NCBI GenBank assembly: GCA_050273025.1
Contig: CP158635.1
Span: 6,448,001-6,512,000, forward strand
Origin: Cenococcum geophilum
Lineage: Eukaryota
Direction of reading: 5' to 3'
DNA: 64,000 nucleotides
Shown: in pieces, positions 17,222-62,300 of the stretch
How positions within the stretch are numbered: position 1 is the stretch's first letter
Layout of the letters: each line of letters begins with the position of its first letter
Program-made: the position numbers and the translations under genes
Notes under the pieces: model-generated
The model's database searches: none
Told to the model about the DNA's origin: nothing
What the model saw: only the letters and a program-made list of their open reading frames with translations

Positions 17222-17334
17222 GGGCTCGATGAAATCGGCCTCTGTACCTCCACGCGGTGGAGCCCGGGAACCTGGCAGCTACTATTGATGTTCCATTTGG
17301 ATCGTGTCAATAGACTACCAGAGCAAACGCAGAG
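17222..17334 (+). ncRNA. HDV-like self-cleaving ribozyme (predicted)
   Basis: P1 GGGCTC/GAGCCC; P2 CTCTGT/GCAGAG; P3 ACC/GGT; L3 TCCACGC; P1.1 GG at 17266-67; long P4 hairpin 17272-17321; J4/2 AGCAAAC with candidate catalytic C17324. Confidence 0.75.
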
Positions 17335-17887: not shown

Positions 17888-20800
17888 TGTAACGGAACCT
17901 TGTAGCAAGAACTACGATGGGCTCGTTATTGGGCTAGGTGTGTAGGAAATGCAAGTACAAAAGTCAACAACGTAATAACAACTGGTGGAGTGGTTGCCCA
18001 ACAGATTAACTCTAATTATATTCTAAGAATCACTACAAAGAAGGAACCATCTAGGTAGGGACTAAGGGTCCTTAAATACATAACCGTACTCCTATAAAAT
18101 CCTTCTTATATATAATATACGTCTTATCTATATTAAACGTAGCATTTCTTATATTTAACGCAGCTAATACGTTTAATTATTATATAACTTGCTTACCATT
18201 TCTTATTATATAGTTCTACGGGTTCCATTCTAGATTATACTTATATTAACTAACTAGCTTCTTCTAACTCCTCTCTAAGTAGTCGTAATATTATACTTAA
18301 AGCGTCCATAATACTATCCCCCTCCTCTTTATCTTTGTCCTTAAAGATACCTAGCATCTTTAGGTTATTTACTAGAGGTATAATATCCATCTAATTAACT
18401 TAGTTAATATTATTACTTATTATACCTAAAGCAATTTCTTCTCTCTCTTAAGTTAAGCGTTGCCTTCGTACCATCTCCTTAATACTATTATTAGGTAAAG
18501 TAATAGCAATCCCTTACTCTTGTTGTGCGAAAGAGGGGTTAAGTTATATTGCAATCGCGAGTTCTTTTAGTTACTAACCTTCCTTTTATTTTAAATGCAC
18601 TTATACTAATATACGTTTATTATATAACGTTTATTCTATATCTAATACTAAATATACACAACCTATTATTCTTAATAGTCGTTTAATTCCCTAATTAATT
18701 TGTCTTAGGGTCTTATATTTAATCTACTACTATAAAACTTAATAGTAAGCTAGCCTCTATATTGCTTAAGGTTTAGTATACCTTAAAAGAGTCCGCGCGT
18801 ATCCTTAAAGCTTAATGTCTAGCTTATGCTTATCTTTAACGTTTAGAATATATTTATAAGAAAGTTCGTTTAAAGGAGTAGAAACTTATTTAATAAGGCC
18901 TCTAGAAACTAGGTAATAAAAGAACGGATTCTCCTCTAATAGAGAAGGAAATAGATCTAAATAGTTTAGCAACTGCTCTTCTTAGGTCCCCCTTAGGTAA
19001 CTTATTCTTTAGCGATCCTTCTTTATTAATACTACCTAACCTAATCTCTTCCAATACTCTTATACCTTTCCTATAGCGTTCTTTAAATTCTCTAGTAGCT
19101 CCTAGGTAGTCTTAGTATAACCTATCTACTTAACCTTATACTATATTTTATTGTTAATATCCTTATAATTAACGATCCTTAAAACTTGCTATTCGTCTTC
19201 TTCCTACCCTCTATACGTGTTTGCTTTATAAACTAGTGGCTTAATATTCCTATATACTAGCTCTAGCATTGCGATATACTATACAGGGTAGATCTTCATT
19301 TTGGCTAGTAGGTTTAACTTAAACGTAACTAGTAAAATTTTTTATATAATTTCGAAAGGTCCTAGTCTAATATAGTCTAACTTCTTACTTAGTTGTTAAC
19401 TCTTAAAATTTTTATATAGTAACTATACTTTATCTCCCTCCTTAAGATTTAGTCCCTTAGATCTCCTAGTATTATAGTACTTTTTTATTCTCTCTTATAC
19501 TTTCTTCGCTAATTCTATAAGGTCTATATAAAGATTTATTAACGTCTTTATTCTCTCTTTAGCTATACTACTTATTTTCTTTACTTACCGTGGTAATAAT
19601 GATGTTCTTAGCTTATATCCGTAATTTGCCTTAAATAGTAATATGCCTATTCCTTCTTAAGGTGTTGCATTATATGCAAACTGTATAACTAATAATAGTA
19701 ATACCCAATTGTTCTATATATAATTGATATAATGCCTTAGATACTGCTCTAGCGTTTAATTTAATCTTTCTGTTTAACCGTCTATTTGCGGATAATATAC
19801 GGTAGAAGTTGCTGCTTAAACTCCTTGCTCCGCTAAGAACACTTCTTAAAATGCTACTATAAATCTTAGATCTCTATCCAATATAATCTTACTTAGTGCT
19901 CCGTGTCTTATAAATACTTCCTTAATATAGATTCTAGTAACATCTTCTGCTGAGATTTCCTCTATATATGCTATAAAGTATCCCCACTTTATAAGCTTGT
20001 CTACTATTACTAAAATTACGTTATAATCTTGTCCGGTAATAGGATCTCTTAACTTTAGTAACTTAATAATAAAGTCCCATAATATGACCTCCTATAGTTT
20101 TTCTAGTATTTTAATAGGTTGTAGCCCTCTATATAGCTTATGCCTCATTAGTTTATTCCTTTAGTAATCTAAATATTCCTTTATAACCTTTCTAGCTATC
20201 CTCTAAATTCCGTTAATGATATACTCCTTCTAGAGTCTTAATACTAAGCCTATAGCTCCATTGTGTCCTTAAGTTAGTCCCTTATAGAAGTCTTCCACGA
20301 ACTACTCTGCTATGCTTCTTAGGATATACTTTACTTCTCGATTTTCGTATATATCTATCTATAGATCTTTTAGCTATGCTTTTAGAATTCTTTATACCTA
20401 AAAGCTTTCTAGTGTCTTGTAGACTTTCTTTAGTTTATCGTTTTCTTAAGTTGCTATAATTTTCGGATAATTATACCTAATTAATCCGTCTATATCTTTT
20501 CGTAATAAAGCCCCTAATGGCTTTTCCTTATTTTATAGTTTAGCTTTACGGCTTAGAGCATCTGCCCGCGTATTATCTGTACCTTTAGTATACTAAATCT
20601 TAAAATGGTATTCCGTAAGTATCTCCGCCTATCTAACCTATCTCTAGTTAAGTTCCTTTATTATTAAGAATCCTATTAGGTTCTTATAATCCGTTTTAAC
20701 TATAAATAGTTTCTCTATACCTTGCAAGAATGCTCTCTATTCCTTTAATGCTGTAACTATACCTAATAACTCCTTATTGTAGATATTATAGTTTAACTCC

Positions 20801-34377: not shown

Positions 34378-35645
34378 TAAAAATAGTAGTATAAGACCCT
34401 AATAAATACTACCGCCTTTTATAGAACTACTACCTAAAGCTTATACGAGCTAAAATGCGTACTGCCTAAGATTATAATATTATTTAAGACCTATAAGCTT
34501 ATAAGGCGCTCGCCAATAATATACGTTAAGAAACTAAAGATAACTTCTATATATCTAAATGCGACGTTTAACAGTTAAAGAAGAATAAAATTATACTAAT
34601 TACTATAGTTACTAAAAAAGAAGGCATAATTAAATACTTATAATCTTAGCTTAATAAGCATATTTATAATAACGCTAGATACCTCTTTACTATATATAAT
34701 GCCACCTAAGTCTTTACGCCCCTGGTAACTTTACCTACTTAATACTTAATAGAGGGTTAGCGCTAAGTAGTTTTACCTAATAAAAACCCTTACTAAAGTA
34801 GTAATAATAAAAGCTATAATAATTAGACCTAAACTATTACTATAGGGTTTAATATATGCTACCTTAATCCCCTAGTCTTTTAAGGAGACCGTAAGGAATA
34901 TAGCCACTAGAAGATATAAATCTATAAAAAAAACTAACTTAGAGCGCCTACCTTTTTCCTATAGAAGATACTAAAATTAGCTATATTATTAGGTAAATAA
35001 AGGGTATACTATTTAATAGACTCTTCGCCTAATAGGAGATTAGTAGCCCCTAGAAGTAGTAGTCTTACTAAAAAGTTCTTAATAATCTTAACCTAATATA
35101 CCGCGACTATAACCTACTAGCTACTAACTAAGCTAAATTATATACTCTAAAAATAAGCCCTATTAAATTATTTAATAAGTTTTATATTAAATTCTAGGAA
35201 TATACTAGAGCCCTCACTTAAGACAACACTAAAGACTAAAAAGATCTCCTTAAAAAAGTTATTTATTGCCTTAGTTACGCAGCTACTAGCTATAACTATA
35301 ATAATATTTATAATATAGTAGCAGCCCTATAGAAGATTAAACGATAACTAAATTAGATTACTACTATTAACTTTTACCTAAAGACCTCTTTATAGAAGCC
35401 CTCTAGACCTATTAAACCTATATATACTAAGCCACTAACACCTACTACTTTTAATACCACTAGAGCTAATATTAACCTCTTTATACTAACCTTTCCGTAA
35501 AAACTTCTAAATAGAGAGCGTAAGCTACTCTAGAAACTAGGACACTACTATAAATACTATTAAAAAGGCTGCTATTATAATAACCTAAACTACCTAATAG
35601 CTAGGTTTAGTAGCTACCGCCTAATACCTAGCTTAATACCCTAAA

Positions 35646-36069
35646 TGTAACGGAACCTTGTAGCAAGAACTACAATAAGCTCGTTATTAGGCTAGGTGTA
35701 TAGGTGATATAAGTTAAAGTTAATAACGTAATAATAACTGGTAGAGTGGTTGCCTAATAGATTAACTCTAATTATATTCTGAGAATTACTATAAGGAAGG
35801 AACTATCTAGGTAGGGACTGTGGTCCTTTAAATATACAACCGTACTCCTATAAAATCCTTCTTATACGTAATATACGTGTGCTCTATCTACTCTGTCGCG
35901 GATTATATAGATTACACAGATCATACAGATCACGTCATGTGACCTTAGTTACCATTCCTCGTTACATAGCTCTACTGGCTCCATCCTAAACCGTGCCTGA
36001 ATTAACCAACTAGCTTCTTCCGACTCTTCCCCAAGTAGTTATAACATCGTACTTAAAGCGTCCGTAATA
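35646..36069 (-). mobile_element. Solo LTR of Gypsy family A
   Basis: Matches the family-A LTRs; TSD CTAAA at 35641-45 and 36070-74. Confidence 0.93.
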
Positions 36070-39000
36070 CTAAATACTAAATATATTATTATATACTACT
36101 ACTATATAAAATAAAGACGTAGTAATAGCAGTAAAGTTAGATAAAGAAGTAAAAAAACGCTAAGTCCTAACTTTAAGTTATAGGTTAAAACGCCTTAATA
36201 ATAGAGGGATCTATATATCGGCTTACTTAATAAATAACTTAGTAAAGATAAATAGATAGAAATAGATAGTTTTATCTATAATAGAAACTACTACTAAAAA
36301 ATAATATAAAAGCCGTTTTATAATTAATTGCGGAGCTATTAATAAATTTATAGATACCTAGTTTATATATACTTATAACCTACCTACCTTGCCCCTTATT
36401 AAAGCCCGCGCCCTATAACTTACTAATAGTAGTTATACTATATAGAAGATTACCTATATAGTATAACTCTACCTAGATATAAATAGGCACTAGAAAGAAC
36501 TTTAGGCCTATATTATACTACTTACTAACTACTCTATTATCCTTATAATAAACTAGCTTAAATAATATAATCTTACTATTAACTAGAAGAAGAGAAAAGT
36601 AACCTTTAATTTTAAATACTATAAAAAGACTTACCTAGGATATAGCCTAACCGCCTTTATTTACTCCCTAGGATATTAACCTAAGAAACCCCTTATTACC
36701 CTACCTATAACTAACTACTACTATATAAGTGCTCTAGCCTTCTACTATATAGTATATAAGAAAGGCTAGACCGTTATTATAGCTTCCTAATTATAATTAT
36801 ATAAGCTTAATAAAGAATAAAACTACGTCCTTTATAATAATAGAATAAATATAATTAACCTTTTAAAAAATAATGCCTTTACGGAACTTTATAGACTTTT
36901 ACCTTTAGACTTTAAAAAGGTTATAAAGTTTAAAAAAGGACTTACTAATAAAAAACTCCATAAGCTTCTCCCTAAGAGGTATTATAACTTTACTAATATA
37001 TACTTATAAAAGGGCGTAGATATACTCCCCCTATATTAACCTAATAACTATACTATTAATATTAAATAAGGAAAAATGCTACTTTATAAAAGACTCTACC
37101 TAATATTAAAAAATAAACTTTTAGTTATAAAAAAGTATATTAACAAGCACCTTAATAAAGGATTTATTTGTCCCAGTATATTACTAGTAGCTACCCCTAT
37201 TCTTCTTATTAAGAAGCTAAAAGGAGGTATTTAATTCTATATTAACTATAGAGGACTTAACGCTATTATAATTAAAAACTAATACCTAGTACCGCTTATA
37301 CGTAAGACCCTTAAGCGGCTTAGTTAAGCCAAAATCTATACTAAGCTTAATATTATCGCCGCCTTTAACTACCTCTAAATATAAAAAGGTAATAAATAGA
37401 AAACTGTATTTATATTACGCTTTAGCCAATTTAAATATACTATTATACCCTTTAGTGTATATAACGGCCTAGGCACCTTCTAATACTATATTAATAACGC
37501 CTTATAGGACTACCTTAATAATTTCTGCTCTACGTATCTAGATAATATACTTATTTATAGTAATAACCCTTTTAAGTATACTAAATATATTTAAAAGGTC
37601 CTATAACGCCTTAAGAACGTAGGACTTTATATTAATTTAAAAAATATATATATAATTTTAGTTATAGAAGTAAAATACCTTAAACTAATTATTACTACTA
37701 AGGGTATCTATATAGACCCTAAAAAGGTATATATAATTACTAAATAGTAAGCCCCTAACTGTATTAAGGATGTATAAGCCTTTCTTAGTTTTACTAACTT
37801 CTATTAGAAATTTATATATAACTTCTTAGACGTAGTAGTATTAGTTATAGTAATAATATAAATAAATGGCCTTTTTATAAAAGGAAAAAAACGCACCTAT
37901 GCTTTACCTAGACGTCTAAATATAAGAAGGCGTTCTAAGACCTTAAAAATGCCTTTACTAAAGCACCTATTCTAGCTTACTTTATACTAGGATAATAACT
38001 CTATCTTAAAACTAACTCCTTAGACTACGTTATTATAGGTATTTTTCCTAAATGGGTAATAACGGTTTTCTTTACCTAGTTGTATTTTACTCGTCTAAGC
38101 TTATACTATAAAAGTATAACTATAAGATCTATAATAAAGAACTCCTTATAATTATATAAGCGTTTAAAGAATTCTAATTAGAACTTCCCTTAGTAGAGCC
38201 TAACTAGCTAACTAAAGTCCTTATGGACCATTATAACCTTAAGTACTTTATAACTATAAAGTAGCTAAACTAATACTAAGTATATTAGAACGAGTTCCTC
38301 TCTAGTTTTAACTTTAAAATTATATATAAACTAGGAGTATAAGGTACTAAACCTAATAGCCTAATACGCCGCTTATAAGACCTTCCTTAGTTTAAAGGTA
38401 ACCCCTATAATTAGTTCTAATAATAAATAATCCTAAAAGTATAAAATTTAGCTTTAGGTATACTACCTATAATAAAGCTAACTATACCTTAGCTTTATAC
38501 TATAGGACTAAAGTTACCTTTTAAAATTAATAAGCTTATTACTACGGTATATAACAACTCTATTAACCTATTATTATATTAACTTATTACTATAAAGACC
38601 GCTAGCGCCTATATACTACCTACTAACCTCTAAAGCTTAGGCTAGATTAATATAGCAGTTTTAAAAGTAAAAGAGAATAGGCTCTATTATAGAGGCCGCC
38701 TATTTATCCCTAACTTAGAAAATTTATAACAGCAACTAATTTAAATAGCCTATAACCTCTAATTAAGCGGCTACTTAGGTAAAAAAGGAACGCATAAGCT
38801 TCTTAGTCAATACCACTTTTAGCTAAAAATAATAGACTTAGTTAAATACTTTATAGATACCTACTATAGTTATAAGCGCGCTAAGGCCTTTAATATAAAG
38901 TACTAAGGACTACTATACCCTCTATTAGTACCTATATAATAATAGGTAGATATCGCTATAAATTTCGTTATTAACCTACTACCCTATAAATAATACGGCC

Positions 39001-44482: not shown

Positions 44483-47400
44483 TATTACGGACGCTTTAAG
44501 TATAATGTTACGACTACTTAGGGAAGAGTTGAAAGAAGCTAGTTGGTTGATTTAGGCACGGTCTAGGATGGAGCCGATAGAGCTATATAACGAGGAATGG
44601 TAACTAAGGTCACATAACGTGATCTGTATAATCTGTATAATCTATATAATCCGCAATAAAGTAGATAGAGTACACGTATATTACGTATAAGAAGGATTTT
44701 ATAGGAGTACGGTTGTGTATTTAAAGGACTATAGTCCCTACCTAGATAGTTCCTTCCTTATAGTAATTCTTAGAATATAATTAGAGTTAATCTATTAGGT
44801 AACCACTCCACCAGTTATTATTATATTATTAACTTTAACTTGCATTACCTATACACCTAGCCTATTAATGAGCCTATCGTAGTTCTTGCTATAAGGTTCC
44901 GTTATATAATTACTACCTAGTTACGGTATTAAGTATAGAAAGTTAAATAATATACCACTAAAAGCAGCCACCATGACGCCATTAACGGCGGCAACTACTT
45001 TAAGGTTAGGGGGAGACACCAGTATAGCGGACACTAACTTACAGTAACCTGTAACGGTTGAACAGCTACAAGAGATAGTTAACTAGTTAATAGAAAATAA
45101 TATAACGTTAGAAAATAAGATTAATGGGATAGGGATAGCAAAGATTAAGCTACTATTAATTAAAAGGTACTTAGGGGAAAGGTCTAAACTTAAAGGATTC
45201 CTTATGTAAATGCATTTTAAGGTTATATAGGAAGGGGTAAAACTACCAATACCTATGGATCGAATAGCCTACGCAGGACTATTCCTGTTAGGGAGAGTAC
45301 TTAAATAGTTTAAACCTTACCTTACGGAAATACAGGTAAATGGAATAACGACCACTAGTTAAGATATATGGTTTATATTCTTAAGCTAGGAAGGATTTAT
45401 AGAACGACTTATATAGATATTCGGAGACCTAAAGGCAGTAACCATAGCAGAAAGAAAACTCTAAGATATTACGTAACGAACCTTAGCGATTAAGTATATA
45501 ATATAGTTCTAAACGTTAGCAACACAAGTAGAGTGGAATAATAGGGCGCTTATAGTATAGTATAAATAAGGACTTAAGGCTAAAGTCTAGGACGTAATTA
45601 TCCTAATAGAAGATGTGGACACCCTAAGGGAACTAATAGATTAAGCGATTAAGATTAATAATTGGATCTACTAAAGGGAATAGACTAAGAGAGGTTAGGA
45701 TAGAGTTCTATAGTTGTATAAGGCGTAGAGTACGCATTAACTAAAGCTAAGTTAAAAACTATAGTATAGCGCAGAGTTAATGGACCTAAGTGGTACTAAA
45801 GAAGCCTATAAGAGATAGAGTAAGAAACTATAGAAACCTAGAGGTTAAGGATTTAGTGATTATAGGACTAAGGAGTAGAGGCTAAACTAGGGATCTTAGC
45901 AGTAAAAGATGTTTAGGCGGACTCTATAGTAAAGTTAATAGTTTAAAGATAGAGCTTATATAAATTATGGGAAACAAGGTTATTTTATAAGGGATTATAA
46001 AGATAGTTAGAGTTACTATATAATAAAGGGAACTAGACTAGTAGCAGAAGATATATATGTATAGAGGGACAATAGTATACTATGAGGAATAAAAGAGTAT
46101 TTAATTAGAAGTTTTGCGTTTTGTTATAATAATGTATACCAAATTTATAAGAACGCTAAGTATAGCGTAAGCTATTAGCTATAGGAGCTATATTTAGCGG
46201 AATACAAAGAAACTAATAAACTAGTTTATAGATCAGATATTAAGGACGATAAATTTAATATAGGCGAAACATTTCATAATAATAAGGCAATAAGGGCCGC
46301 TTACTAGGAGCGAGCAGACCTTAGAGATATTATACCAGAGGTAGAGGATAATTCCACTATAGAATAGGGAACATTAGTAGGGATTAAGACCCCACTAGAT
46401 ACGATGTTTATCGCTTTATAAAACATAAGAGAAGTAGGATAGCGAACCACTTTAGCACTTAATAAAGGCAAAAGGCCAAAGGCTTAAGATTCTTAAGATA
46501 AGACGAGAGACGACTAAGATTCTTAAAGTGAGATAAGGCATACCTAAGGACCCACAACGGAAAGAAACCGATAGAGTAGGGTAGTAGCTTAGTTTAAAGA
46601 CATACAAATAAGCTTAGGACAGAGTTTCCCATAGGCATAAAACTCTTAAGACGAGATAAGTGAGATTTAAGACTCTTAAAGTAAGATAAGAATACTAAGT
46701 AAGCCTAGTTGGACTAAGGCAGGAGTAAAGCTTAAGTTAGAAGCAAGCTTAGAATTAAGAATCCTATAGGACTAAGACTTTAAGACATAAATAAGGACCA
46801 TTAACTAGATTAGAGAATCTGTAGTATAAATAGTAACTAGACTAGGAGACAGATATATAGACCTAGAGGACTTACTAGGAGAATATAGTGTTTAGCCTAA
46901 AGATTGAAAAGTTAATACCGAGATTAAGAAGTATAAAGACTTTAAGGATTTAAGCGCGAGACGCAAACCAAAGGAAACTATAGAAGAATTTAGACGAAGA
47001 ATTATCGCATAGCAAGAACAGAAACTAGATAAGAGATTTAGCATATTAGGACGTATAAGGGACAGAGCACTAGTACGAAGAATTACTAATAGGCTTAGGG
47101 TAGGTATACCTAGAGCTAAGTAGCTTACCAAACTAGAAAATAAAGAGGATTTAGGGATTCTAACTAGGTTTGAGGAATGATATACTAAAGGCTGTTACGA
47201 CGTAGTAATAAGAAGATACTTTCTTACGGATAAGCCGTATATACTCTAGCAGCTGTACTAAAAGTGGTATAGATAAAGGCATAATAATAAGTAGGAGGAT
47301 TTCTATATGTGGTTAGATAAGAAAGTAATTTAAGACCACCCTATTATAGAAAAGGCGATAAGTTACATTAAAGGAGCCTTAATTATAACGTTAAAGGATC

Positions 47401-50400
47401 TAAAGGAACGATTAGAGAACTAGAGAAGTAAGAGACACATCTTAGTACCTACGAACGAAGCCGTAACGTTCAGATTAATACGATATAGATTTAAACTTAA
47501 GAACGAAGATAAGCTAAGAGTTAACCCAAAACACTAAGCATACTACATATTAGTATAGATCGTATGCGTAAATAATACGTGTAATATATATAGAGCACCT
47601 AAGGATAAGTATAAGAAATACCTTATAAGAATATATTGGTTAATAGAAGAACAGAGGTACTAAAATGCTAAGTATATACATGGCTAGCATCTAGTAGAAG
47701 TTTAGGAGTTAGGAGACTTAATACTTTAGCTAAAAAGATTCCTTACGGAAGAATGCCTAGATGGACGATAGTGGTGGGAATGCCTAGAGAATATATGTCT
47801 ATAGTATATTAAAGATAAAAAGCAAACTAAGTATTAGCTAAAAGTGGACTAAGTATAAACAAGATTAAGCAGCTAATAGTTAGGAAAAGTAGAGGCCTAT
47901 AGGACTAGAGGGAACTAGTGGTAGAGCCTTAAACCCTTAAAGGAATTTAAGGACGGCACCTAAATTTATAAATTAAATGGTAAGATTAATAGTTCGAAGT
48001 GCTAATAGATAGTAGAGTAATAAGAAACTATATCTTACTAGCAGCAGTTAAAAGAATAGGATTACCATATAGGAAAAAGGAGTACCCTTACCTATTAGTA
48101 ATAATTTTAGGAGATCCGATAGCCTATAGAGGAGGTATTATTAATCTTAAAATAGGACCTATTTAGTTAACTATTAAAGGGAGATAGATTAAGATGTCCT
48201 TTAATATATTACCATTAGGGAATAATAAGGTAGTATTAGGAATGCCTTAGTTATAAAAATATAATCTAAAGATTAATTAGGTTATAGGTTAAGTTAATAT
48301 TAGGGATACTTAATGCTATAAGATGTGATAATAAGCCAAGTTAGTATGGTATTAAGTAGGAGCAACCTATAAAGAAACGGAAAAAGGACTAAGTCATATA
48401 CTAAAGAAATACCATAAGTATGGTAAGAAACTATGGTCACTAGAAAGTAAAAAGCTGTTAGAGTATATAGCGTGGGACTATAAGATAGAGTTAGAACTAG
48501 AAATAAGTCTAAAGTTCTTTCTAATTTATAAGCTTACCAAAAAAGAAGGTAAAGCATTAAAAGAGTTTGTCTAGGAAAATCTACAAAAAGGATATATTAG
48601 ACTATTGCAGTTATTAGCGGGTTATCCAGTACTATTTATACTAAAAAAGAATGGCAAACTAAGGTTATACATTAACTACAAATAGTTAAATAGCATTACT
48701 TAAAAGGATAGGTATTCTTTACCCTTAATTAGCGAAATCTAAGATAGGATAGGCAACGCGTAAATCTTTACGAAGATAGATTTAAGATAGGCATACCATT
48801 AGATTAGGATTAAGGAAGGTAATAAATGGAAGGTAGCCTTTAGGTTAAAGGAAGGACTATATAAACTATTAGTTATGCAATTTGGGCTTATAAACGCACT
48901 AGTAACGTTCTAAAAGCGTATTAACAATATATTAGGAGAATACTTAGATGAATTTATTATGGTATATTTTAATAATATTATTATCTACTTAATAACTAAG
49001 AAAGAGCATGGGGAATACGTTAAATAGGTCTTAAAGAGACTATAAGAAGAACAGATGCTAGTAGCAATTAAGAAATGCAAATTCTTTACTAGGAACACCG
49101 ATTTTGTTAGATTTATTATTAAACTAGGCTAACTTAGTATAGATTTAAGGAAGATTAAGGCTATAGCGAATTGGTAAGAACTAAAGAACGTTACGCAGTT
49201 AAGATCGTTCCTAGGGTTTTGCAATTATTGCAGAAGGTTTATAGCGCAATAGTTAAAGAACACTAAGCTATTTACGTAGTTAACGAAGAAAGAAGAACTA
49301 TAGGTATAGGGAAAGGAATAGCAGGAGCTATTTAAGAAAGTTAAAGAGTTATTTACCCAAGAGCTAGTTCTTAAAATTTATTAACTAGGTCTAGAGACGG
49401 TTGTAGAAATAGATGCATTAGATTACATACTAGGGGCATATTTTATGCAGAAATATTAAGATAGATAGCACCTAGTAGCGTACTATAGTTAAAAGATGAC
49501 ACCACTAGAGTTAAACTATAACATTTACAATAAGGAGTTACTAGGTATAGTTATAGTATTAAAGGAATAAAGAGCATTCTTGCAAGATACAGAAAAACTA
49601 TTTATAGTTAAGATGGATTATAAGAACCTAATGGGGTTCCTAATGATTAAAGAACTTAATTAAAGATAAGTTAAATGGGTAGAAATGCTTGCGGAATACT
49701 ATTTTAAGATTTAGTATACTAAGGGCACAGATAACGTACGGGCAGATGCTCTAAGTTAAAAGGCTAAACTATAAAACGATAAAAAGCTATTAGGGGCTTT
49801 ACTATGAAAAGACACAGATAGAGTAATTAGGTACAATTATCCAAAAATTGTAGTAACTTAAGAAAATAACAAACTAGGAAAAGTCTATAAGATACTAGAA
49901 AGCTTTTAGGTATAAAGAATTCTAAAAGTATAGCTAAAAGATCTACAGTTAGATATATACGAAAATTAAGAAGTAAAGTATATCCTAAGAAGTATAGCAG
50001 AGCACTTTATGGAAGACTTCTATAAGGGAATGACTTAAGGACATAACGGAGCTACGAGCTTAGTATTAAGACTTTGAGAGGAGTATATTATTAACGGAAT
50101 CTAGGGCTTAGCACGGAAAGTTATAAAGGAATATCTAAATTACTATAGAAATAAACTAATAAGGTATAAGCTATATAGAGGGCTATAACCTGTTAAAATA
50201 CTAGAGAGACTATAGGAGGTTATATTATAGGACTTTATTATTAAGTTACTAAAGTTAAGAGATCCTATTACCGGATAAGATTATAACGCGATTTTAGTAA
50301 TAGTAGATAAGCTTATAAAGTAGGGATACTTTATAGCATATACAGAAGAGATATTAGCAGAAGATGTCGCTAGAATCTATATTAAAGAAGTATTTATAAA

Positions 50401-52435
50401 ATATAGAGCACTAAGTAAGATTATATTGGATAGAGACCTAAGATTTATAGTAGCATTTTAGGAGGTATTTTTAGCGGAGTAAGGAGTTAGAGCAGCAACT
50501 TTTACTATATATTATCCGTAGACAGACGGTTAAACGGAAAGATTAAATTAAACGCTAAAACAATATCTAAGGTATTATATTAATTACGTACAGAATAATT
50601 GGGTATTACTATTACTAGTTATATAGTTTATATATAATATAACACCTTAAGATGGAATAGGCATATTACTATTTAAGGCAAATTATAGATATAAGCTAAG
50701 AATATTGTTATTACTACGATAAGTAAAGAAGATAAATAGCATAGCTAAAGAAAGAATAAAGACGTTAATAAATCTTTATGCAGACCTTATAGAATTAGCG
50801 AAAAAGGTATAGGAGAGAATAAAAAGGTACTATAACGCTAAGAGATCTAAGGGACTAGATCTTAAGGAGGGAGATAAAGTATAGCTACTATATAAAATTT
50901 TTAAGAGTTAACAACTAAGTAAGAAGTTGGACTATATTAGACTAGGACCTTTTAAAATTATATAAAAGATTTTACCGGTTATATTTAAGTTAAACCTACT
51001 AGCTAAGATAAAGATCTACCCTATATAATATATTATAATGCTAAAACCAGCATATAGAAATGTTAAACCACTAGTTTATAAAGCAGACACGTATAGAGGA
51101 TAGGAAGAAGACAAATAGTAAGTTTTAAAGATCGTTAATTATAAGGACGTTAATAATAAAATATAGTATAAGGTTAAGTAAATAGGCTATACTAAGACTA
51201 CCTAGGAGCTACTAGAGAATTTAAAGAATACTATAGGAAAGATATAGGAGTATCGGAAGAGGATAGGTCAGGCAGTATTAATAAAAAAGGATTACTAAAA
51301 AATAAGTTACCTAAGGGGGACCTAAGAAAAGTAATTGCCGAACTACTTAGATCTATTTCCTTCTCGGTAAGAAGAGAGTCTATTCTCTTATTACTAAGTT
51401 CCTATAAACCCTATTCTATAAGTTTCCACTCCTTAGAATAAACCTTCTTACGCACCTTCTTAAGACGAATTAACTAAGCGGACGCCGTAAGACGAGACTT
51501 AAGGGCCCGTTGTTAAGTATCGGCAGCCTCTTATTTAGCGTTATAAGAACGGCGTAATTCCGCTAGAGTAACAGACAGTTTATTATCTAGCTGTGTAGCA
51601 GTAGATTAAATATAAAACCCTAAGATAAATTAATTAGGGAACTAGACAACTATTAAGAGTAATAGGTCGCGTATACTTAGCATTAGAGATAAAGCGAACG
51701 TTACAGGACGAATAAATATTCGCTTTAGTGCACTTTAAATAAGAGAACGGTTATTGCGAAGATGGGTTTACTAACGTAACACAAACTAACCCCTCTTTTA
51801 AGCAGCGAGAATACGGAGACGGTATAATTTTACTAAGAGACAATATCGCAGCGATAGTGCGAGCACGACGAGCAGTTGAGGACGAAGAAATTGCTTTAGG
51901 CATAATAAGTAATAATATTAACTAAATTAATTAGACGGATATTATACCTCTAGTAAACAACTTAGAGATATTTTAAATCTTTAAGGACGAAGATAAAAAG
52001 GAGGGAGATGGTGTTATGGACGCTTTAAGTATAATATTATAACTACTTAGGGAAGAGTTAGAAGAAGCTAGTTAGTTAATTTAGGCATAGTCTAGGATAG
52101 AGCCAATAGAGCTATGTAATAAGGAATGGTAACTAAGGTTATATAACGTGATCTATATAATCTATATAATCTATATAATCCACAATAAAGTAGATAGAGT
52201 ATACGTATATTACGTATAAGAAGGATTTTATAGGAGTACGGTTATATATTTAAAGGACCATAGTCCCTACCTAGATAGTTCCTTCCTTATAGTAATTCTT
52301 AGAATATAATTGGAGTTAATCTATTAGGCAACTACTCCACTAGTTATTATTACATTATTAACTTTAACTTGCATTACCTACACACCTAGCCTATTAACGA
52401 GCCTATCGTAGTTCTTGCTATAAGGTTCCGTTATA
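44483..52435 (+). mobile_element. Ty3/Gypsy chromovirus, family A copy 2, full-length, inserted in the integrase HHCC region of family C
   Basis: 424-bp LTRs at 44483-44906 and 52012-52435; TSD TATTA on both sides; PPT before 52012; CCHC knuckle ~45960, protease ~48005, RT YFDD ~48965, chromodomain ~51110-51230. Confidence 0.93.
51290..51903 (-). pseudogene. Antisense accessory gene of Gypsy family A, copy 2 (best preserved, ATG intact)
   Basis: ATG at 51903: MPKAISSSSTARRARTIAAILSL, then RIP-corrected PCSRCxKEGLVCV...SCSECTKANIxSSCDV, a short intron and a coiled-coil exon; end approximate. Confidence 0.65.
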
Positions 52436-53910
52436 TATTAAGTATATAAGATCCGCAGGCACAAGCTATAGGGTTTACTTAAATTAGTTCCCCCTACTAG
52501 TAAGCTATAGTAATATTATACCATAGACTTTATTACGGATCTCCTACTATCTAAAGATAGCTAAGGATAAATATACAATTCGGTCCTTATACTTATTAAT
52601 AGGTTTTTAAAGTATGTTTAATACCTTCCTATTAATAAGACGATTAATATATAAGCGCTAGCTAACTTAATTAAGGAGAAATACTTTCTTAAAGTAGATT
52701 AGCCGCACTCTATTATCACTAATAGGGGCAGCGTCTTTATAAGCCAGTACTAGTTAGACCTATAGTTCTATTTAAAGATAGACCACCATTATAGTATAGC
52801 TTTTTATTTATAAATGGATAGGTAAACAGAATGCCAGAATTAGGAACTAGAGTCTTACCTACAAATATATTTAAACTACTAGCAAGATAATTAGTGTAAG
52901 CTACTTCCGTACGCGGAGTACGCTTACAATTTAAAGGAATATATATTATATAAGTATATACTAATCTAGATTACCTATAGCGTTTAGCTATTTGGGTTTA
53001 ATAGTATACCTAATAATTACTAGCTAAGGCCGTATAATTAGTTATAGGATCCTACCAGGAAGTCTAAGGACATCTACTAAAGAGTATAAGGATACCTCTA
53101 AAAATAGAAGGAGTAATAAAAGTATGCGAAGTAGAGCCTATAGGATGTCTAAGAGTAGTAGAGACTTTAGTACAACCGCAAGCACTAGGATAAGCATTTC
53201 GGAGTAGGCGATAACATCGGCAAAATATGGTACCCTGCCAATGGCCTCAATGGTTAGTGGTTGACGCAATTGGCGCGCAGTTGAGGGCATTTGGCAACTC
53301 GACCGACTAGCCTACGTCGTGTTTTTTTGACACGCAGCCTGCGCGCAGCCTGCGCGCAACCTGCCAGCAATCTGCGCATTTGGCAACCATAATTGTATTT
53401 ACCTCTTTTAAATAAATAAAAGCTACTTTAAGGCTATTTATAAGGCTAGCAAAATAAATATTATTTTAGATAATTTAATATAATATAGCGATGGTTCTCT
53501 TCTACCTATCTACCTATTGACTTACCTACCTGCCTATCTACCTACCTGCATCGCCTACATCGCCTACCTATCTGCATCGCCTACCTGTTTATATCTGCCT
53601 ACCTGTCTATATCTGCCTACCCATTAGCATCTACCTACCTGTCTATATCTGCTTGCCTATTTATATCTACTTATCTATCTATATCTGCCTACCTATCTAT
53701 ATCTACCTACCCGTCAGCATCTCTATATTTATGCCTACCTGTCTATACTACCTTAATTTGATCAATTAATCAAATCGTTTATAGTGTTCGCTGGCTAGTC
53801 GTTATTGTCTGGCTCTGGCGACGGTGGTCTGGTTCTGGTAACGGTTGTCTGGTTTTAGTAACGGTTATCTAGTTCTAGCGACGATAGTCTGGTTCTAGCG
53901 ACGGTCCTCT

Positions 53911-54154
53911 CCTACCTACCTACCTACCTACTTACCTACCTACCTACTTACCTACCTACCTACCTACCTACCTACCTACCTACCTACCTACCTACCTACC
54001 TACCTACCTACCTACCTACCTACCTACCTACCTACCTACCTACCTACCTACCTACCTACCTACCTACCTACCTACCTACCTACCTACCTACCTACCTACC
54101 TACCTACCTACCTACCTACCTACCTACCTACCTACCTACCTACCTACCTACCTA

Positions 54155-54193
<39 letters not shown>
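53911..54193. repeat. (CCTA)n microsatellite ending in (CCTG)n
   Basis: About 60 CCTA units followed by about 9 CCTG units. Confidence 0.97.
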
Positions 54194-54590
54194 ATATTAG
54201 TGTATAATTTAATTTGGGGGAGGGGTCGGCCTGATTAAAGGCCCTGATTATATTCGAACGGTAGTCGTCTAGGGTGCCTCCCTAGGAGGCCTTGATTTGA
54301 TTCGGTAATAGGCCAATATTAAAGCTTTGGTTCAATTCGATCGATCAATTGATTAAATCATTCGTGGTGTTTGCTAGCTGGTTATTCAAACGGTCGTCGT
54401 CTGGTTCTAGTAACGGTCGTCTAGTTCTGGCGATAGTCGTCTAGTTCTGGCGACGGTCCTCTGCTAGCTGCTGTTCTGGTGCCTCCCTAAGTAGGGAGGA
54501 AGTAAGGAAGGAAGGAAGGGTAAAAGATAATATGGCTATATAGGGCAGAGGCACGTGTAGAGGCTATTGGGAATATAGCGGGGACCTAAT

Positions 54591-54935
54591 ACAGAGCTTT
54601 GTGTAGAGCCTCTGTACGTAGAGCTTCGTGTAGAGCCTCGTGCAGAGCTCGTGCAGAGCCTCTGTACGCAGGGCTTCGTATAAAGCCTCGTGTAGAGCCT
54701 TATGTAAAGCTTCGTGTAGAGCTTTGTATAGAGCTTCGTGTAGAGCTTCGTGTAGAGCTTCGTGCAGAGCTTTGTGCAGAGCTTCGTGCAGAGCTTCGTG
54801 CAGAGCTTTGTGCAGAGCCTCTGTACGCAGAGCTTTATATAGAGCCTCTGTACGCAGAGCTTTGTGTAGAGCTTTGTATAGAGCTTTATATAGAGCTTCG
54901 TATAGAGCTTTATATAGAGCTTTATGCAGAGCCTC
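54591..54935. repeat. 12-bp minisatellite, consensus ~TGCAGAGCTTCG
   Basis: More than 20 degenerate tandem units with C>T/G>A variants. Confidence 0.92.
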
Positions 54936-57900
54936 TAAGTAATAAGACTATATAAGATTATATAAGATTATATTAGATAATATATAATAGTTAAATATAT
55001 AGTATATAACTTTACCTTAATTACGTGTTAAGAAATATATAGTTACCTTTTAAAGTTATTAAGTAGGTTAACTGCGTATTAAGGAACATACAGTTAGCTT
55101 TTAAAGTTATTAAATAGGTTAACTACATGTCAAGAAATATATAGTTAGCTTTTAAAGTTGCTAAGTAGGTTAACTGCGTGTTATTTAACTTTTAAATGTG
55201 TCAATTTGGTTAATTGCGTGTCAAGTTAGTTAATTACGTGTCGAGTTGGTTAAATTACATGTCAATTACGCGAAATACGAAAATCAAAGTCTACTTAAAT
55301 CTCATCCTGCGAATATTTTCCCGATGAAGGTTCTATTACGGTCAACGGATGTTGAGACCCGTTAACTATTAAAGAAGCTTAATACAAGATACCTAGGTCT
55401 CTTCTAAGTTAAGGAACAAATTAGTAAGCTAGCCTACTGTCTCTAGCTACCCCTATCTATAGCCTATATATATCTAGTGTTTTATATAAACCTATTAGAG
55501 CTATAGCATAGACTACCACCAAAAAAGAACTTCCATTTAGGCCCAATTAAACACCCTAAGGTAGTAGGCGAGTGGTACGAGGTTAAAGCTATACTATGCT
55601 ATAAGTCTATTAAGAACAAGCTTTAATTTAAAGTTAAATGGCTAGGCTAGCCCGCTAAGGACTCTATATAGGAACCAAAGGATTACCTTAATTATTGCGA
55701 AGATATTCTAAAAGAATATTAGGACTAAGGTCTATAATCTATAAGTTATAAAAAGCGCTCTAATACTATAGTGTTATCGCGACCTATAAAGAAAGCTCGC
55801 GAAAAGAGTAAATAGGTTAAATTAGATATAGAATAGATAGGCTCTGGAAACTATAGAGATAGGGCTACAGCCTAAGGCAGGACGGGTCCTTAGCCTTTTT
55901 ACGTATATAGCATAGAGTTAATAGGGCATTTTGCTAGAATTGCATTTCTATTTATTAATCTATACTAGAAATATTATTTTTAGGGCTTCTAAGCCCTTTC
56001 TAAAAGCCTTTTAAGGCCTTCCTAAGCACCTAATTAAGGTCCTCGATTGCCACTATATATAAGAATAAATCCCAAATGCCTAATCTGAAAAGCCACTATG
56101 CCTTATCCTTAGGAGTAGGATTAGTATCTATTGGCCCTCTAAGGGATGGCTAACGAGAATAAGATCTAGAACCCTTAGTAGGCGTATAAGTAGGCATAAA
56201 AACAGGGGTAGGATAATAAGGTGTAGCTAGAGCAGAGACTCTTAAACGCTTAACACTAATATTAGGTCTAAACTAATACTAATAAAGCTCTTATGGCGTA
56301 AGCTTATAGTTAATAAAGATATACTTAAGCCTAGAATAAACAGAGATGTTAGCTGGCTGGTATAGTTTAGAACTACCAAGACCTTATTACGGTAACTATT
56401 AGTTACCTATCTGCTAGGTACCCGAAGGGTAGCCTACCTAATACCGTATTATGTTATGCTCTTTTAAAACTTAACGCGTATATATAAACTCCTTTCTATA
56501 GTAGACAGCGACCTTCTTTTTATTACCCCTATTTTTTACCCTATCCTTAGTATACTAACCTTACTCTCATATTAGGCGTTACTAGCTAGCTTGCTAGGAA
56601 TTATAGGCGGTGTAGATAGCTGTAGTATAGTCTTAAATTCGACCTAGATATTTAATATTAGTGCTTAAATAGAAGAGAGCCTGGGCGATGTAGTAGTTAA
56701 GGACATTAAAGGAACGTCGCCACTTAGGCCTAGGCTATTAAAGTTAATAATAGATATCTATTAAGGATAGAAAAGCTTATCTTAATGCAACTGCCGCTCT
56801 TAGTACGCATGCATTAATTATAAGGACTAAAGGTATTAGATCTAACGTAGTGCGTCTTATTATAAGCCTTTAGAATTTTATTATTAGATTTCTAGTCTTT
56901 TAAAGACGTATAGGCAAAATTATTTAGGTAGGACTAGCACTAGTTGCGGGTTAGTAGGGGTTAGGGTTCTATATGCAAAGGCAAGGCTAGAATACGCTAT
57001 AAAATTTGCTTAAAAGAGCAGTTAGTAGGAGAACAAAGAGATATATTAAATTAATAATAAAAAAGAAGAAAATCTTAATAATATATTAAAGATACGTCTA
57101 AATTGGACAAAGGTTAATAATGGGAAGTAAGGTGTTAAGGAAAAGGATTAAGCTTAATAAGTAAAGTGTCTTTATACTTTACCGTCCAATACCCTTTTAG
57201 TAAATAGCCGCAACCTTACTAATATAACTCCGTTACAATAGCGTTATTTAAAAGGAAGGAAACACGCGTATAAGTTATTTAACCATCACTTCCTTATAAA
57301 AACTAACTACGCGGCCGGGGGAAGGCAATTAAGACGTTAAATTAGACCTAAAATAATACTGTAGTATTAAAGAACAACGTTATAGACGTTCTTAACAATT
57401 GTATAATAGTTGTAATTGCTATTACGAAATGTCCCTATTTGCTAGGCAGTAGAGCTACGCCAAATATATAGCATAGGACCACCAGATTTGAAAGTATATA
57501 CACTAAATCTTAAGAGATAAGTCTCTTTAACTAATTAATTAATACCTTAACCGCATCTAATAGCCTAAGGGTAAATACGGGAGTAATGCGTTAGTGACGT
57601 AGAGGATTATAAGAAAAGGATTATAAGAAAGAATTATAGACTATATCTTAGTAGTTAAAGACAACGGCAAGCTAAGGCTCCGTATATTAAATCCTATACT
57701 AAAAGGTTCTACGGAACTATACTAGAACACTAAATTACCTATAATACTTATAAGTAATTGCAAACCGGTATAAAGGCTTAGAAGTAGAGTTATATAAAAA
57801 TCCTTATATTAGCCTAGGTAGTTACCGGCATGCTTCTAGTAGGCTTCTAATAGGTCTCCTAGCAATCTTTACGTCTTTTCTCTAGTTATATTTTTTCCTT

Positions 57901-59350: not shown

Positions 59351-62300
59351 TGTAATGGAGCCTTATAATAGGAACTACGGTAGACTCGTTAATAGGCTAG
59401 GTATATAGGTATTGCAAGTAAGTTAACAACGTAATAATAACTAGTGGAGTAGTTGCCTAATAGATTAACTCTAATTATATTCTAAGAATTACTATAAGGA
59501 AGGAACTATCTAGGTAGGGACTAAGGGTCCTTAAATACATAACTGTACTCCTATAAATCCTCCTTATACGTAATATACGTGTTATATATAAGGTATATAA
59601 GTTCCTCTTATTCCTCGCGTTTACTACGTAGCACGTTATATAACCTTAGCTACTATTCCTCGTTATATAGTTCCACGGGTTCCATCCTGGACTATGCTTA
59701 TATTAACTAACTAGCTTCTTCTAACTCTTCCCTAAGTAGTTGTAATATTATACTTAAAGCGTTCGTAACACTATCTCCCTCCTTTTTATCTTTGTCCTTA
59801 AAGATACCTAGTATCTCTAAGTCGTTTATTAGAGGTATAATGTCCGTTTAATTAATTTAGTTAATATTATTACTTATAATACCTAAAGCCTCTTCTTCTT
59901 TATACGCGCAACGTTATGCCCGCACTATTACTGCAATATTGTTGCTTAGTAAAATAATACTATTTTTATATTCTTGTTATTCAAAAGAGGGGTTAGTTTA
60001 TATTATGTTGGCGAGTCCTTTGTCTTAATAGCCCTCTTCTTATTTAGAGTGTACTAAAGTAAACATTTAATCGTCTTATAATGTTTACTTTACTTTTAAC
60101 GCTAAATATACGCGTCTTATAACTCTTAATAGTCTCTAAGTTCTCTAAGTAATTTATTATAGGGTCTCGTGTTTAATTTACTGCTGTAAAGCTTAATAGT
60201 AACCTGGCGTAGGCCCTTGCGAAGCTTAAGTGTTCTTAGGATACGGAACAGAAGGCCCTAGATGCCCGCATTACGGCGTCTGCCCATCTACTTTATCTTA
60301 AGAAAGTTTATAAAAAGGTCCGTTTTAAGGAGTAAAAACTTATAGAATAAGGTTTATAGGAACTTAGTAATAAAAGAACGGATTCTCTTCTAATAGAGAA
60401 GGAAATAACTCTAAGTAGTTCGGCAGTCGCTCTTCCTAGGTCCCCCTTAGGTGGCTTATTCTTTAGTGATTCCTCTTTATTAATATTACCTGGCCTTTTC
60501 TCTTCCGATACTCCTATACCTTTCCTATAGTATTTTTTAGGTTCTCTAGTAGTTCCTAGGTAGTCTTATCGTAGCCTATCTACTTTACTTTATACTATAT
60601 TTTATCGTCTATGTCCTTATAACTAACAATTCTTAAAACTTACTATTTGTTTTCTTCTTATCCTCTATATGTGTCTACCTTGTAGACCAGTGGCTTAATA
60701 TTCCTATATACTAGTTCTAGCATTGCGATGTGTTATATAGGGTAGATCTTTATCCTAGTTAGTAGGTTTAACTTAAATATAACTAGTGAAATTTTCTGTA
60801 TAATTTTAAAAGGTCCTAGTCTGACGTGGTCTAACTTCTTACTTAGTTATTAACTTTTGAAATTTTTATATAGTAGCCATACTTTATCTCCCTCCTTAAG
60901 ATCTGGTCCCTTAGATCTCTTAGCATTATAGTACCTTTTTATCCTTTACTATACCACTTTAGCTATTTCTATAAGGTCTATATAAAGATTTATTAAACTC
61001 TTTATTCGTTACTTAGCTATATTACTTATCTTCTTTACTTAATATAGTAATAATAAGGTCCTTAGTTTATATCCGTAATTCACCTTAAATAGTAACATAC
61101 CTATTCCTTCTTATGGTGTTGCATTATATATAAATTATATAACTAGTAATAGTAATACCTAATTATTTTATGTATAATTAATATAATGCCTTAAATACTG
61201 TTCTAGTATCTAATTTAATTTTTCTGTTTAACCATCTGTCTATAGATAATATGCAGTAGAAGTTACTACTTAAATTCCTTGCTCTACTAAGAACACTTCC
61301 TAGAATACTACTATAAATCTTAGATCTCTATCCAATATAATTTTACTTAGTGCCCTATATCTTATAAACACTTCTTTAATATAGATTTTAGCAATATCTT
61401 TCGCTAATATTTCTTCTAAATATGCTATAAAGTATCCCCACTTCGTAAGCTTATCTACTATTACTAAAATTACATTATAATCTTATCTGGTAATAGGATC
61501 TCTTAACTTTAGTAACTTTATAATAAAGTCCTATAATATAACCTCCTATAGTCTCTCTAGTATTTTAATAGGTTATAGCCCTCTATATAGCTTATATTTT
61601 ATTAGTTTGTTCCTTTAGTAATTTAAATATTCTTTTATAACTTGCCTAGCTAGTCCCCAAATTCCATTAATAATATACTCCTCTTAAAGCCTTAACACTA
61701 AGCCTATAGCTCCGTTATGTCTTTAAGTTAGTTCTCTATAAAATAACTTAATAAACTCCTTTGTGATAGATCTTAGTACATATATTACTTCTTAATTTTT
61801 ATACTGCTCTAAGTCTAGATCCTCTGTTTATATGTCTAGGATCTTTTATATTTAATTACTTTCTAGTAATTTGTAGATTTTTTCTTCTTGTGTTATTATA
61901 ATCTTTAGATAATTATACCTAATTAATCTATCTATGTCTTTTCGCAACAAAGCCCCTAATGGCTTTTTATTATTTTATAGTTTAGCCCTTCTACTTAGGG
62001 CGTCTGCTTGTGCATTTTCTATACCCTTAGTATACTAAATCTTAAAATGGTATTCTATAAGTATCTCCGCCTATCTAACCTATCTGCGATTAAGTTCTTT
62101 CGTTATTAGGAACCCTGCTAGGTTCTTATAATCCGTCTTAACTATAAATAGTTTTTCTATACCTTATAAGAATAATCTCTATTCCTTTAGTGCTGTAACT
62201 ATTCCTAATAACTCCTTGTTATAGATATTATAGTTTAGTTCTAGTGGTGTTATCTTCTAACTATAATATGCCACTAGGTGCCATCTATCTTTATATTTCT

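Follow-up and report, generated by a model that had tools for sequence, protein, structure and literature searches.

Long terminal repeat (LTR) retrotransposons are usually thought to need gag and pol only. The locus described here raises the question of whether a Ty3/Gypsy element of Cenococcum geophilum has carried a third gene, encoded on the strand opposite to pol and interrupted by an intron, and what the product of such a gene may have done. The stretch analysed (referred to as the window) comprises 64,000 nucleotides (nt) of contig CP158635.1 (assembly GCA_050273025.1, positions 6,448,001 to 6,512,000 of the forward strand). An antisense frame of two exons was found between pol and the 3′ LTR in all three Gypsy copies of the window, each of which has been degraded by repeat-induced point mutation (RIP), and it is close to certain that this frame represents a real, once-functional gene of the element. 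Overall, it is probably to be read as a RIP-inactivated accessory gene of a chromovirus family whose product would have been a dimeric, DNA-binding regulator, possibly of the element's own LTRs.

From approximately 17.8 kb onward, the G+C content of the window falls to 27-40%, and this low-G+C part contains three copies of one LTR element (LTR pair spacing of 7530 and 7529 nt). The second copy is flanked on both sides by the 5-bp target duplication TATTA and retains matches to reverse transcriptase and RNase H on its plus strand (Pfam RVT_1, 72.5 bits, and RT_RNaseH, 77.3 bits). Since a less degraded relative (locus L052) additionally has a chromodomain (Pfam Chromo, 28.8 bits against a cut-off of 25.1), the element can be assigned to the Ty3/Gypsy chromoviruses. 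Comparison of the three window copies over 853 columns revealed 201 columns with C/T or G/A differences and 100 with transversions or mixed changes, and this dominance of transitions is the signature of RIP. A Pfam search of the raw open reading frames (ORFs) of the window returned no family.

When un-RIPed relatives of the antisense protein were compared with the window by tblastn, only three places were matched, in two segments each and with E values down to 1e-27. In the second copy, for example, residues 34-105 of the database protein P0042 match 51879-51661, and residues 20-138 of P0004 match 51605-51234. The initial annotation, made from the sequence alone, had proposed an antisense frame beginning with MPKA in all three copies; the frame is indeed present in each of them, but MPKA can be read in the second copy only, as the first and third have ATA in place of ATG (IPKA). 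It had also ended the feature of the second copy at position 51290, which proved too early: the frame of exon 2, offset by one base from that of exon 1, continues to a TAG common to all three copies (51231-51233 in the second). The frame-restoring intron of approximately 55 nt with a TAG acceptor, suggested at the same time, is exactly 55 nt long (51674-51620 in the second copy) and has the donor ATAC and the acceptor TAG in all three copies. A GT two bases upstream in the second copy (51676-51675) was also considered as the donor and rejected, because it would give a 57-nt intron, leave the two frames unjoined, and contradict the spliced proteins described below. Every insertion or deletion among the three window copies is a multiple of three. 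As had been observed, the nucleotides of this region are more diverged than those of pol (74-77% versus 87% complementarity between repeat arms). Internal stops number 7, 9, and 10 (10 in the first copy and 9 in the third), the donor is mutated in all three, and the antisense gene copies of the window are dead.

A cluster of six RIP-corrected cysteines had been recognized in exon 1, and this part of the proposal needs to be qualified. Loops of five and twelve residues had been given, and the real spacing is C-x2-C-x6-C-x13-C-x2-C-x8-C. Cys codons occur in at least one window copy at four of the six positions, and positions 31 and 55 are occupied by Tyr codons in all three copies; in the second copy, two of the six Cys codons have been changed to Tyr by RIP. 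The coordinates of the gene and of the element that carries it are listed in Table 1.

Table 1. Features of the antisense gene and of the element copies in the window (positions counted from the first letter of the window)
Feature	Position	Strand	Basis or remarks
Antisense gene, copy 2	51903 to 51231	-	two exons, 55-nt intron
Exon 1, copy 2 (229 nt)	51675..51903	-	ATG 51901-51903, basic N-terminus, six-Cys cluster
Six Cys codons, copy 2 (residues 31, 34, 41, 55, 58, 67)	51703..51813	-	TAT, TGC, TGT, TAT, TGC, TGT
Intron, copy 2 (55 nt)	51620..51674	-	donor ATACGC, CTAAT near 3′ end, acceptor TAG
Exon 2, copy 2	51231..51619	-	long-helix region, C-terminal motif ...SPLGNLFFSNPFLLILPDLSSSDTPISFL, stop TAG 51231-51233
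Antisense gene, copy 1	18422..19076	+	exon 1 18422-18653, intron 18654-18708, exon 2 18709-19073, stop 19074-19076
Antisense gene, copy 3	59879..60530	+	exon 1 59879-60107, intron 60108-60162, exon 2 60163-60527, stop 60528-60530
First pol-frame stop common to nearly all relatives	51461..51463	+	TAA or TGA in 82/84
Ty3/Gypsy element copy 2 (7953 bp)	44483..52435	+	LTR pair spaced 7529; pol on + strand
5′ LTR, copy 2	44483..44906	+	LTR pair comparison and boundaries from sequence
3′ LTR, copy 2	52012..52435	+	LTR pair comparison and boundaries from sequence
Polypurine tract, copy 2	51985..52011	+	adjoining 3′ LTR, ~80-110 nt upstream of antisense ATG; sequence

Relatives of the gene are numerous. 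A profile built from the three window translations of exon 2 (stops read as X) retrieved 37 proteins, all of them unnamed and from JGI or ENA data, and scanning metagenome contigs with seven of them gave 611 matching stretches. A relative is encoded by 563 of these, from which the best 80 loci were retained. When the retained loci were compared with the spliced protein P0004 by tblastn, the alignment set in at residues 15-23, and hence at the junction, in 76 cases, which implies that the genomic copies are interrupted there. The resulting alignment comprises 85 copies (82 near-full-length copies from metagenome loci and the three of the window), and in every one of them the gene occupies the same position, antisense to pol and between pol and the 3′ LTR, in agreement with the suggestion that it belongs to the element.

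The structure of the gene is conserved throughout this alignment. The intron is missing from none of the 85 genomic copies and measures 55 nt in 83 of them, with 54 nt in L071 and a 22-nt deletion in L019. Its acceptor is AG in 84 copies, and its donor is GT (GTGCGC or GTACGC) in 18 and AT in 66. As RIP acts at TpG, the AT form, which all window copies have, is the change expected from it, and the initial reading of the ATAC donor as a mutated GT is borne out by the copies that retain GT. Exon 1 occurs in lengths of 226, 229, 232, 238, or 241 nt and exon 2 in 13 different lengths between 347 and 401 nt, with the frame kept in all, and the coding length is a multiple of three in 84 of the 85 copies.

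Codon counts were made on 84 copies, with L019 excluded. The start codon is ATG in 21 of these and ATA in 62, and 81 of them terminate with TAG. Within the reading frame, 585 stops were counted, namely 391 TAA, 188 TAG, and 6 TGA. At the ten commonest readable stop columns, the other copies have CAA, CAG, CGG, or TGG, and the worst of these columns is a stop in 72 of the 84 copies; given this alternation, RIP explains the damage. 

Relatives that have escaped RIP are also present in databases. A protein search with exon 1 identified P0041 (152 residues) and P0042 (239 residues), both un-RIPed and spliced, from contigs of 1246 and 1423 nt. The six cysteine positions proposed for the window copies are Cys in un-RIPed relatives, and the RIP-corrected reading of exon 2 offered in the initial annotation (RLEKVRKKVRSKEWKLVEQGLQEL) turned out to be nearly identical to such sequences (for example, ...RLEKVREKVRSKEWKLVEQGLQEL... 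in P0005). In a profile search of 1.84 billion representatives, 361 clusters passed E ≤ 1e-3, 113 of them also 1e-10 and 8 also 1e-30; among the clusters found is a distant un-RIPed group of proteins of 145-227 residues that have a common layout (such as P0184, P0142, and P0194). The only named members of the family are "hypothetical protein" entries of Lachnellula arida and Pseudogymnoascus, and a scan of viral contigs with the distant group detected no relative. The called ORFs of RIPed relatives (P0044, P0052, and P0062-P0073) often begin 85-100 codons upstream of the conserved MPP start. These extensions cross the polypurine tract into the LTR and are probably an artefact of longest-ORF calling, although stops are notably absent from this region. 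P0071, P0174, and P0059 are variants, two of which have an internal deletion of the second half of the cysteine cluster; in P0059, the six residues CTFHVR replace WSRVQ at the junction, which could reflect a different splice or a subfamily.

The initial annotation had further proposed that the antisense transcript is spliced and that the junction should be sought in RNA data of relatives. RNA runs were chosen with the gene-rich part of the window, and the gene region was compared with four runs at 80% likeness. Among the contigs of run X6 (a metatranscriptomic library from a root sample), one of 568 nt with a depth of 9.35 aligns to 51273-51610 and 51677-51895. Between these two segments, 66 letters of the window are skipped and 11 letters of the contig intervene, a net loss of 55 that corresponds to exactly the 55-nt intron at its predicted sites. 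Read on the minus strand, exon 1 (...GCTAAAT) is joined directly to GGTCTCATGTTTAATCT..., with exon 2 starting as in L012. Splicing is equally evident from four database proteins (P0004, P0016, P0041, and P0042), which run continuously over the junction (...SDAEW/SRVQSAAAKLD..., the slash marking the junction). P0004 and P0016 read ...SCDVRSVS(N/D)AEW-S(Q/R)VQSAAAKLDGEL..., that is, exon 1, the junction codon T/GG, and exon 2. The junction sought was therefore found, and in each of these five sequences the intron is precisely missing.

Such junctions bear directly on the most sceptical explanation of the locus, according to which there is no gene at all and the antisense frame is a shadow of the pol tail or of cis-acting sequence that appears protein-like through RIP correction. 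This explanation can draw on the pol frame, which lacks common stops for approximately 75 codons into exon 2, and on another sense frame that is largely open in the RIP-corrected consensus. A selection test was performed on transversions only, because RIP does not make them, using columns with a transversion in at least two copies. At codon positions 1, 2, and 3 of the antisense frame, such columns amount to 20/77, 6/76, and 38/76 in exon 1 (p 5e-8) and to 26/127, 28/128, and 52/128 in exon 2 (p 3e-4), which means that transversions concentrate at antisense third codon positions. The variants of exon 1 are 37 synonymous and 45 nonsynonymous in the antisense frame (mean BLOSUM +1.7); when the three sense frames are read instead, the synonymous ones number 4-17. 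Where the gene overlaps pol, the antisense frame has 14 synonymous and 25 nonsynonymous variants (mean BLOSUM +0.9), against 38 variants in the pol frame, none of which is synonymous (mean BLOSUM -2.0). An excess of synonymous changes is found in the antisense frame only, and the 361 related protein clusters are likewise at odds with a mere shadow. Considering the spliced contig, the spliced database proteins, the kept GT..AG, and the pattern of transversions, the no-gene explanation is already contradicted and is scarcely credible. The antisense protein was under purifying selection in the past.

It may also be asked whether a real gene was of any use to the element, since a small zinc-cluster gene of the host could have been captured once and carried along as a passenger. 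The un-RIPed relatives of about 200 residues in Lachnellula arida and Pseudogymnoascus, annotated as ordinary hypothetical proteins, would agree with such an origin. However, the frame, the intron, and the cysteines have been kept across many diverged subfamilies, in which the 13 lengths of exon 2 are all in frame, and substitutions are biased by codon position. These features together point to selection while the element was spreading and make a passenger very improbable.

The selected exon overlaps the end of pol. The chromodomain ends approximately 10 codons inside the end of the antisense gene, and, as no stop common to the relatives precedes the one in Table 1, pol probably overlaps antisense exon 2 by about 230 nt. 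The position of this stop in the window was transferred by hand from L052 (2439-2441), and in this subfamily the TAA found there could have arisen from CAA by RIP. Over window positions 51231-51463 (L052 2442-2668), the last ~75 antisense codons lie under the pol frame, which here comprises the end of the chromodomain and a tail of ~65 codons. The stretch shared with pol is highly conserved, with a transversion in 29 of 224 columns, and the part of pol that follows the chromodomain seems to continue over the selected antisense exon without being under selection itself. A further sense frame resembling a long pol tail in the consensus of the three copies was considered and discarded, as it is not the pol frame.

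The protein encoded by the antisense gene has approximately 205 residues. Its short basic N-terminus is followed by the six-Cys cluster and then by a helix of ~100 residues, and a conserved motif lies at the C-terminus. In all 85 copies, no codons other than those of Cys and Tyr occur in the six cysteine columns (Cys in 32, 51, 21, 35, 73, and 36 copies, respectively), which upholds the earlier observation that the cysteine pattern is kept. Conservation of the protein is highest in the C-terminal motif, ...SPLG.FF.DPSL.LP..SSDTP.PF. Members of the distant group begin with MPP.R... and a basic helix, followed by C-x2-C-x6/7-C-x8-C-x2-C-x6-8-C, GPS..W, a long helix of the type ...RL.KQR..R..A.EMLRRGL..LDELE..., and an acidic proline-rich tail with an FW motif. 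AlphaFold models were obtained for P0042 (69-row alignment; mean predicted local distance difference test score, pLDDT, 75.6, with the cluster at 63-75 and helix 98-199 at 91-99) and for P0184 (39-row alignment; mean pLDDT 84.4, cluster 91-96, long helix 65-153). Each model has a short helix at either CxxC pair as well as a single long helix (pLDDT 91-99 in both), and neither contains a metal. The hydrophobicity of heptad a and d positions exceeds that of shuffled sequences in P0184 (reached by 0 of 2000 shuffles) and in P0041 (17 of 2000). By the models and the heptad test, the second exon, which had been described as amphipathic, encodes a long helix with heptad character, which would most likely form a dimeric coiled coil.

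Zn2Cys6 domains have the spacing C-x2-C-x6-C-x5-12-C-x2-C-x6-8-C. The distant relatives fall within this range, and the window subfamily departs from it by one additional residue in the loop between the third and fourth cysteines. A profile of 39 members was compared with the sequences of solved structures, and the best of 12 hits at E ≤ 10 were two marginal matches to PUT3 (1ajy, E 0.005, and 1zme, E 0.007), with GAL4 (3coq, E 0.46), CYP1 (E 4.1), and HAP1 (E 5.2) further down; the cysteines are in register in both PUT3 alignments and in that to GAL4. P0042 used as a single sequence gave nothing significant against PDB. Foldseek searches with the P0042 and P0184 models gave nothing at E ≤ 0.001. 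Their weak rows are titled Zn2Cys6 DNA-binding domains in 10 of 11 cases for P0042 and in 14 of 19 for P0184 (E 0.35-8.6) and name PUT3, GAL4, HAP1/CYP1, Pho7, or PPR1; the remaining P0042 row, 1cld, we take to be LAC9. ESM Atlas comparisons, which serve as leads only, gave 0.91 for the whole protein to unnamed Ascomycota clusters and to one auto-named "Zn(2)-C6", and at most 0.86 for the N-terminal part.

Judging from sequence and models, the protein thus looks like, and probably works like, a DNA-binding domain of the Gal4/Put3 type with a dimerising helix. It shares with the domains of Gal4, Put3, Hap1, and Ppr1 the six cysteines in the same order and at nearly the same spacing, and its models, though only weakly matched in structure searches, place helices at the CxxC pairs and a long helix after them. 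Unlike these proteins, it is only ~205 residues in total, is encoded by a retrotransposon, lacks a large regulatory middle domain, and falls below the Pfam threshold in every member tested; its helix of ~100 residues is much longer than the dimerisation element of Gal4 or Put3. The claim of a Zn(II)2Cys6 cluster made in the initial annotation accordingly stands as a likeness and fails as a Pfam membership, and because of this failure we call the protein Zn2Cys6-like rather than a member of Zn_clus.

A number of findings weigh against the interpretation of the product as a DNA-binding regulator of the element and are gathered here. Pfam Zn_clus (PF00172) stays below its 21-bit cut-off everywhere, with a best score of 18.0 bits (P0175); sub-threshold matches to it are listed for 3 of 10 exon-1 translations, 3 of 4 close relatives, and 6 of 12 further relatives. 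DUF3716 (PF12511) fits about equally well, also below its cut-off of 22 bits (17.4 in L052, 13.6 in L013, 15.4 in P0044, 16.4 in P0052, and 13.4 in P0176). The 13-residue loop between the third and fourth cysteines of the window subfamily is one residue beyond the usual range, few basic residues lie between the second and third cysteines, and the structural matches are all weak (Foldseek E of at least 0.35, VIA Z 2.0-3.5). The heptad test of P0042 is not significant, its value being reached by 178 of 2000 shuffles. With regard to transcription, the X6 contig differs from the second copy at 90 of 557 aligned letters and, being only ~84% identical to it, derives from a related, less RIPed copy; DNA can occur in RNA libraries, a caveat that applies to its origin. 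The raw RNA run X19, which has the same species label, gave 57 reads, 54 of them partial and none across the junction, so that nothing shows expression in this organism; the contig sets X20 and X21 contain no junction either. With coverage sparse or absent in these data, the negative outcome does not argue against a transcript.

In view of the evidence on both sides, the product was probably a Zn2Cys6-like dimeric DNA binder, and its action on the element's own transcription is proposed more tentatively, as a possibility that falls short of being probable. That the protein binds zinc and DNA and dimerises is something we infer, and the same holds for its target and for where the promoter lies. 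A hint of where the antisense transcript may start comes from P0042, whose 5′ read-through (residues 3-23) aligns weakly (23 bits) to 52036-51974, from the polypurine tract into the LTR edge, which would place the start inside the 3′ LTR. The 3′ LTR would be the likely site of an antisense promoter. In the LTRs of relatives, the majority consensus of 30 loci has approximately eight short CGTAC-containing repeats at ~235-310 nt upstream of the antisense ATG. A CGG-N12-CCG at about -202 in the LTR consensus was also considered as a binding site and was not used, since by our own estimate ~0.4 such occurrences are expected by chance in 600 nt.

In a live element, the gene would be transcribed antisense to gag-pol, probably from inside the 3′ LTR, and the 55-nt GT..AG intron would be removed from the antisense mRNA. 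As this intron is antisense to the genomic RNA, it would remain unspliced there and be passed on through reverse transcription. The mRNA would be translated into a protein of ~205 residues with a six-Cys cluster of the Gal4/Put3-type Zn2Cys6 layout, whose conserved hydrophobic and acidic C-terminal motif may dock a partner or activate transcription. The element would in this way make its own dimeric, sequence-specific regulator, which would act on its LTR promoters.

The C-terminal motif also lends itself to a different assignment, in which the gene is real and its product a zinc-binding cofactor of retrotransposition, such as an integration tether or a helper of nuclear import or assembly that docks Gag or integrase through this motif. 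As noted above, no other part of the protein is as conserved as this motif, and transversions are rarest in the stretch that contains it; moreover, the Zn_clus scores stay below the Pfam cut-off, so that DNA binding is a proposal only. On the other hand, a cluster, a linker, and a long helix in this succession, as well as the matches to PUT3 and GAL4, are features of DNA-binding domains, and no likeness to a known integration or assembly factor was found in Pfam and PDB searches, which leaves the cofactor an unlikely explanation. A product directed at the host, either as a counter-defence or anti-silencing factor, the latter also suggested in the initial annotation, or as a regulator of host genes in favour of the element, is less plausible still and must be considered improbable: all that speaks for it is the general logic that elements live under RIP and RNA silencing, and the protein has no link to silencing pathways, and its likenesses are solely to DNA-binding domains.

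The remainder of the window provides the setting of the element copies. Positions 1-17800 have ~50% G+C, are gene-rich, and meet the RIPed repeat block at a sharp border at ~17.8 kb; long open frames lie in this part, for example at 152-2596 (minus strand), 7747-9564 (minus strand), and 11106-12398 (plus strand). An additional LTR of the same family is found at 35643-36072 in the opposite orientation. It is 88-91% complementary to the LTRs of the second copy, has no match to the antisense gene beside it, and is either a solo LTR or what terminates a truncated copy. Tandem-repeat regions occupy 53486-54220, 54643-54935, and 55017-55183, including a long array of the CCTA/CTAC type with an 8-nt period, which is flanked by 18- and 20-nt tandem repeats, with a 12-nt tandem repeat and three 51-nt repeats farther on.

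A regulator encoded antisense to a retroelement is known from a vertebrate retrovirus, namely HBZ of human T-cell leukemia virus type 1 (HTLV-1), an antisense-encoded, spliced basic leucine zipper (bZIP) factor whose transcript starts in the 3′ LTR. The present gene resembles it as a regulator-like protein with a dimerising helix that is encoded on the antisense strand of a retroelement by a spliced transcript. Unlike HBZ, it has a cysteine cluster instead of a bZIP domain and belongs to a fungal retrotransposon, and its start within the LTR is weakly indicated. The closest precedent is the fungal gene brtn, which reportedly lies between pol and the 3′ LTR of its element. The initial annotation had named this gene as a precedent, rightly so according to papers that cite the original report: brtn is described there as an additional antisense gene in Boty-like Ty3/Gypsy elements of Botrytis cinerea, reported in 2011 (Zhao et al., Virology 417:248; PMC8365987, PMC4227169). 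Both cases, as far as brtn can be judged from its description, have in common a fungal chromovirus-type element with an additional gene encoded opposite to its own strand, and this position, on the strand opposite to pol and between pol and the 3′ LTR, was found in the three window copies and in 82 related copies. None of the family matches in protein searches carries the name brtn, and no account was found in the literature of brtn or another fungal retrotransposon gene as a zinc-cluster protein.

Two further systems share single features with the gene. Plant LTR retrotransposons are described as having additional ORFs, in part antisense, in the interval from pol to the 3′ LTR (PMC7264820; Retand, PMC11963269). 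The likeness described is one of position, and the host kingdom and the element lineages differ. The DUF3716 proteins REP9-1 and REP9-2 are described as cargo of the IS3EU DNA transposon of Zymoseptoria tritici (PMC8232023) and are likewise an instance of a small cysteine-rich domain carried by a fungal transposon; the sub-threshold match of L052 covers positions 4-59 of the 59 in DUF3716. Unlike REP9-1 and REP9-2, the antisense protein belongs to an element of a different class and falls short of DUF3716 membership. Hence, an antisense extra gene is a known arrangement, and what is new is the splice evidence, the selection evidence, and the description of the protein at the level of a family.

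The proposal can be extended, more speculatively, to fungal chromoviruses as a group. These elements might produce, from their 3′ LTRs, a spliced antisense mRNA for a minimal Gal4-type dimer that binds the LTRs and balances sense and antisense transcription in a manner like that of HBZ and Tax, and the small "hypothetical" proteins with a zinc cluster and a coiled coil that are annotated for many Ascomycota might be copies or domesticated descendants of this gene; we regard this generalization as rather unlikely to hold in full. If the main proposal is true, a conserved and spliced antisense third gene, present throughout the family and with a DNA-binding-like product, would mean that elements of this kind bring their own regulator. 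The protein is short, intact versions are publicly available (P0041, P0042, and P0184), and the candidate target LTR adjoins the gene, all of which would make the proposal directly testable. For annotation, small ORFs without a name and "hypothetical proteins", which number in the hundreds in genomes and metatranscriptomes of fungi, become assignable to this gene, and RIP-degraded copies can be read reliably once they are aligned with less degraded relatives.

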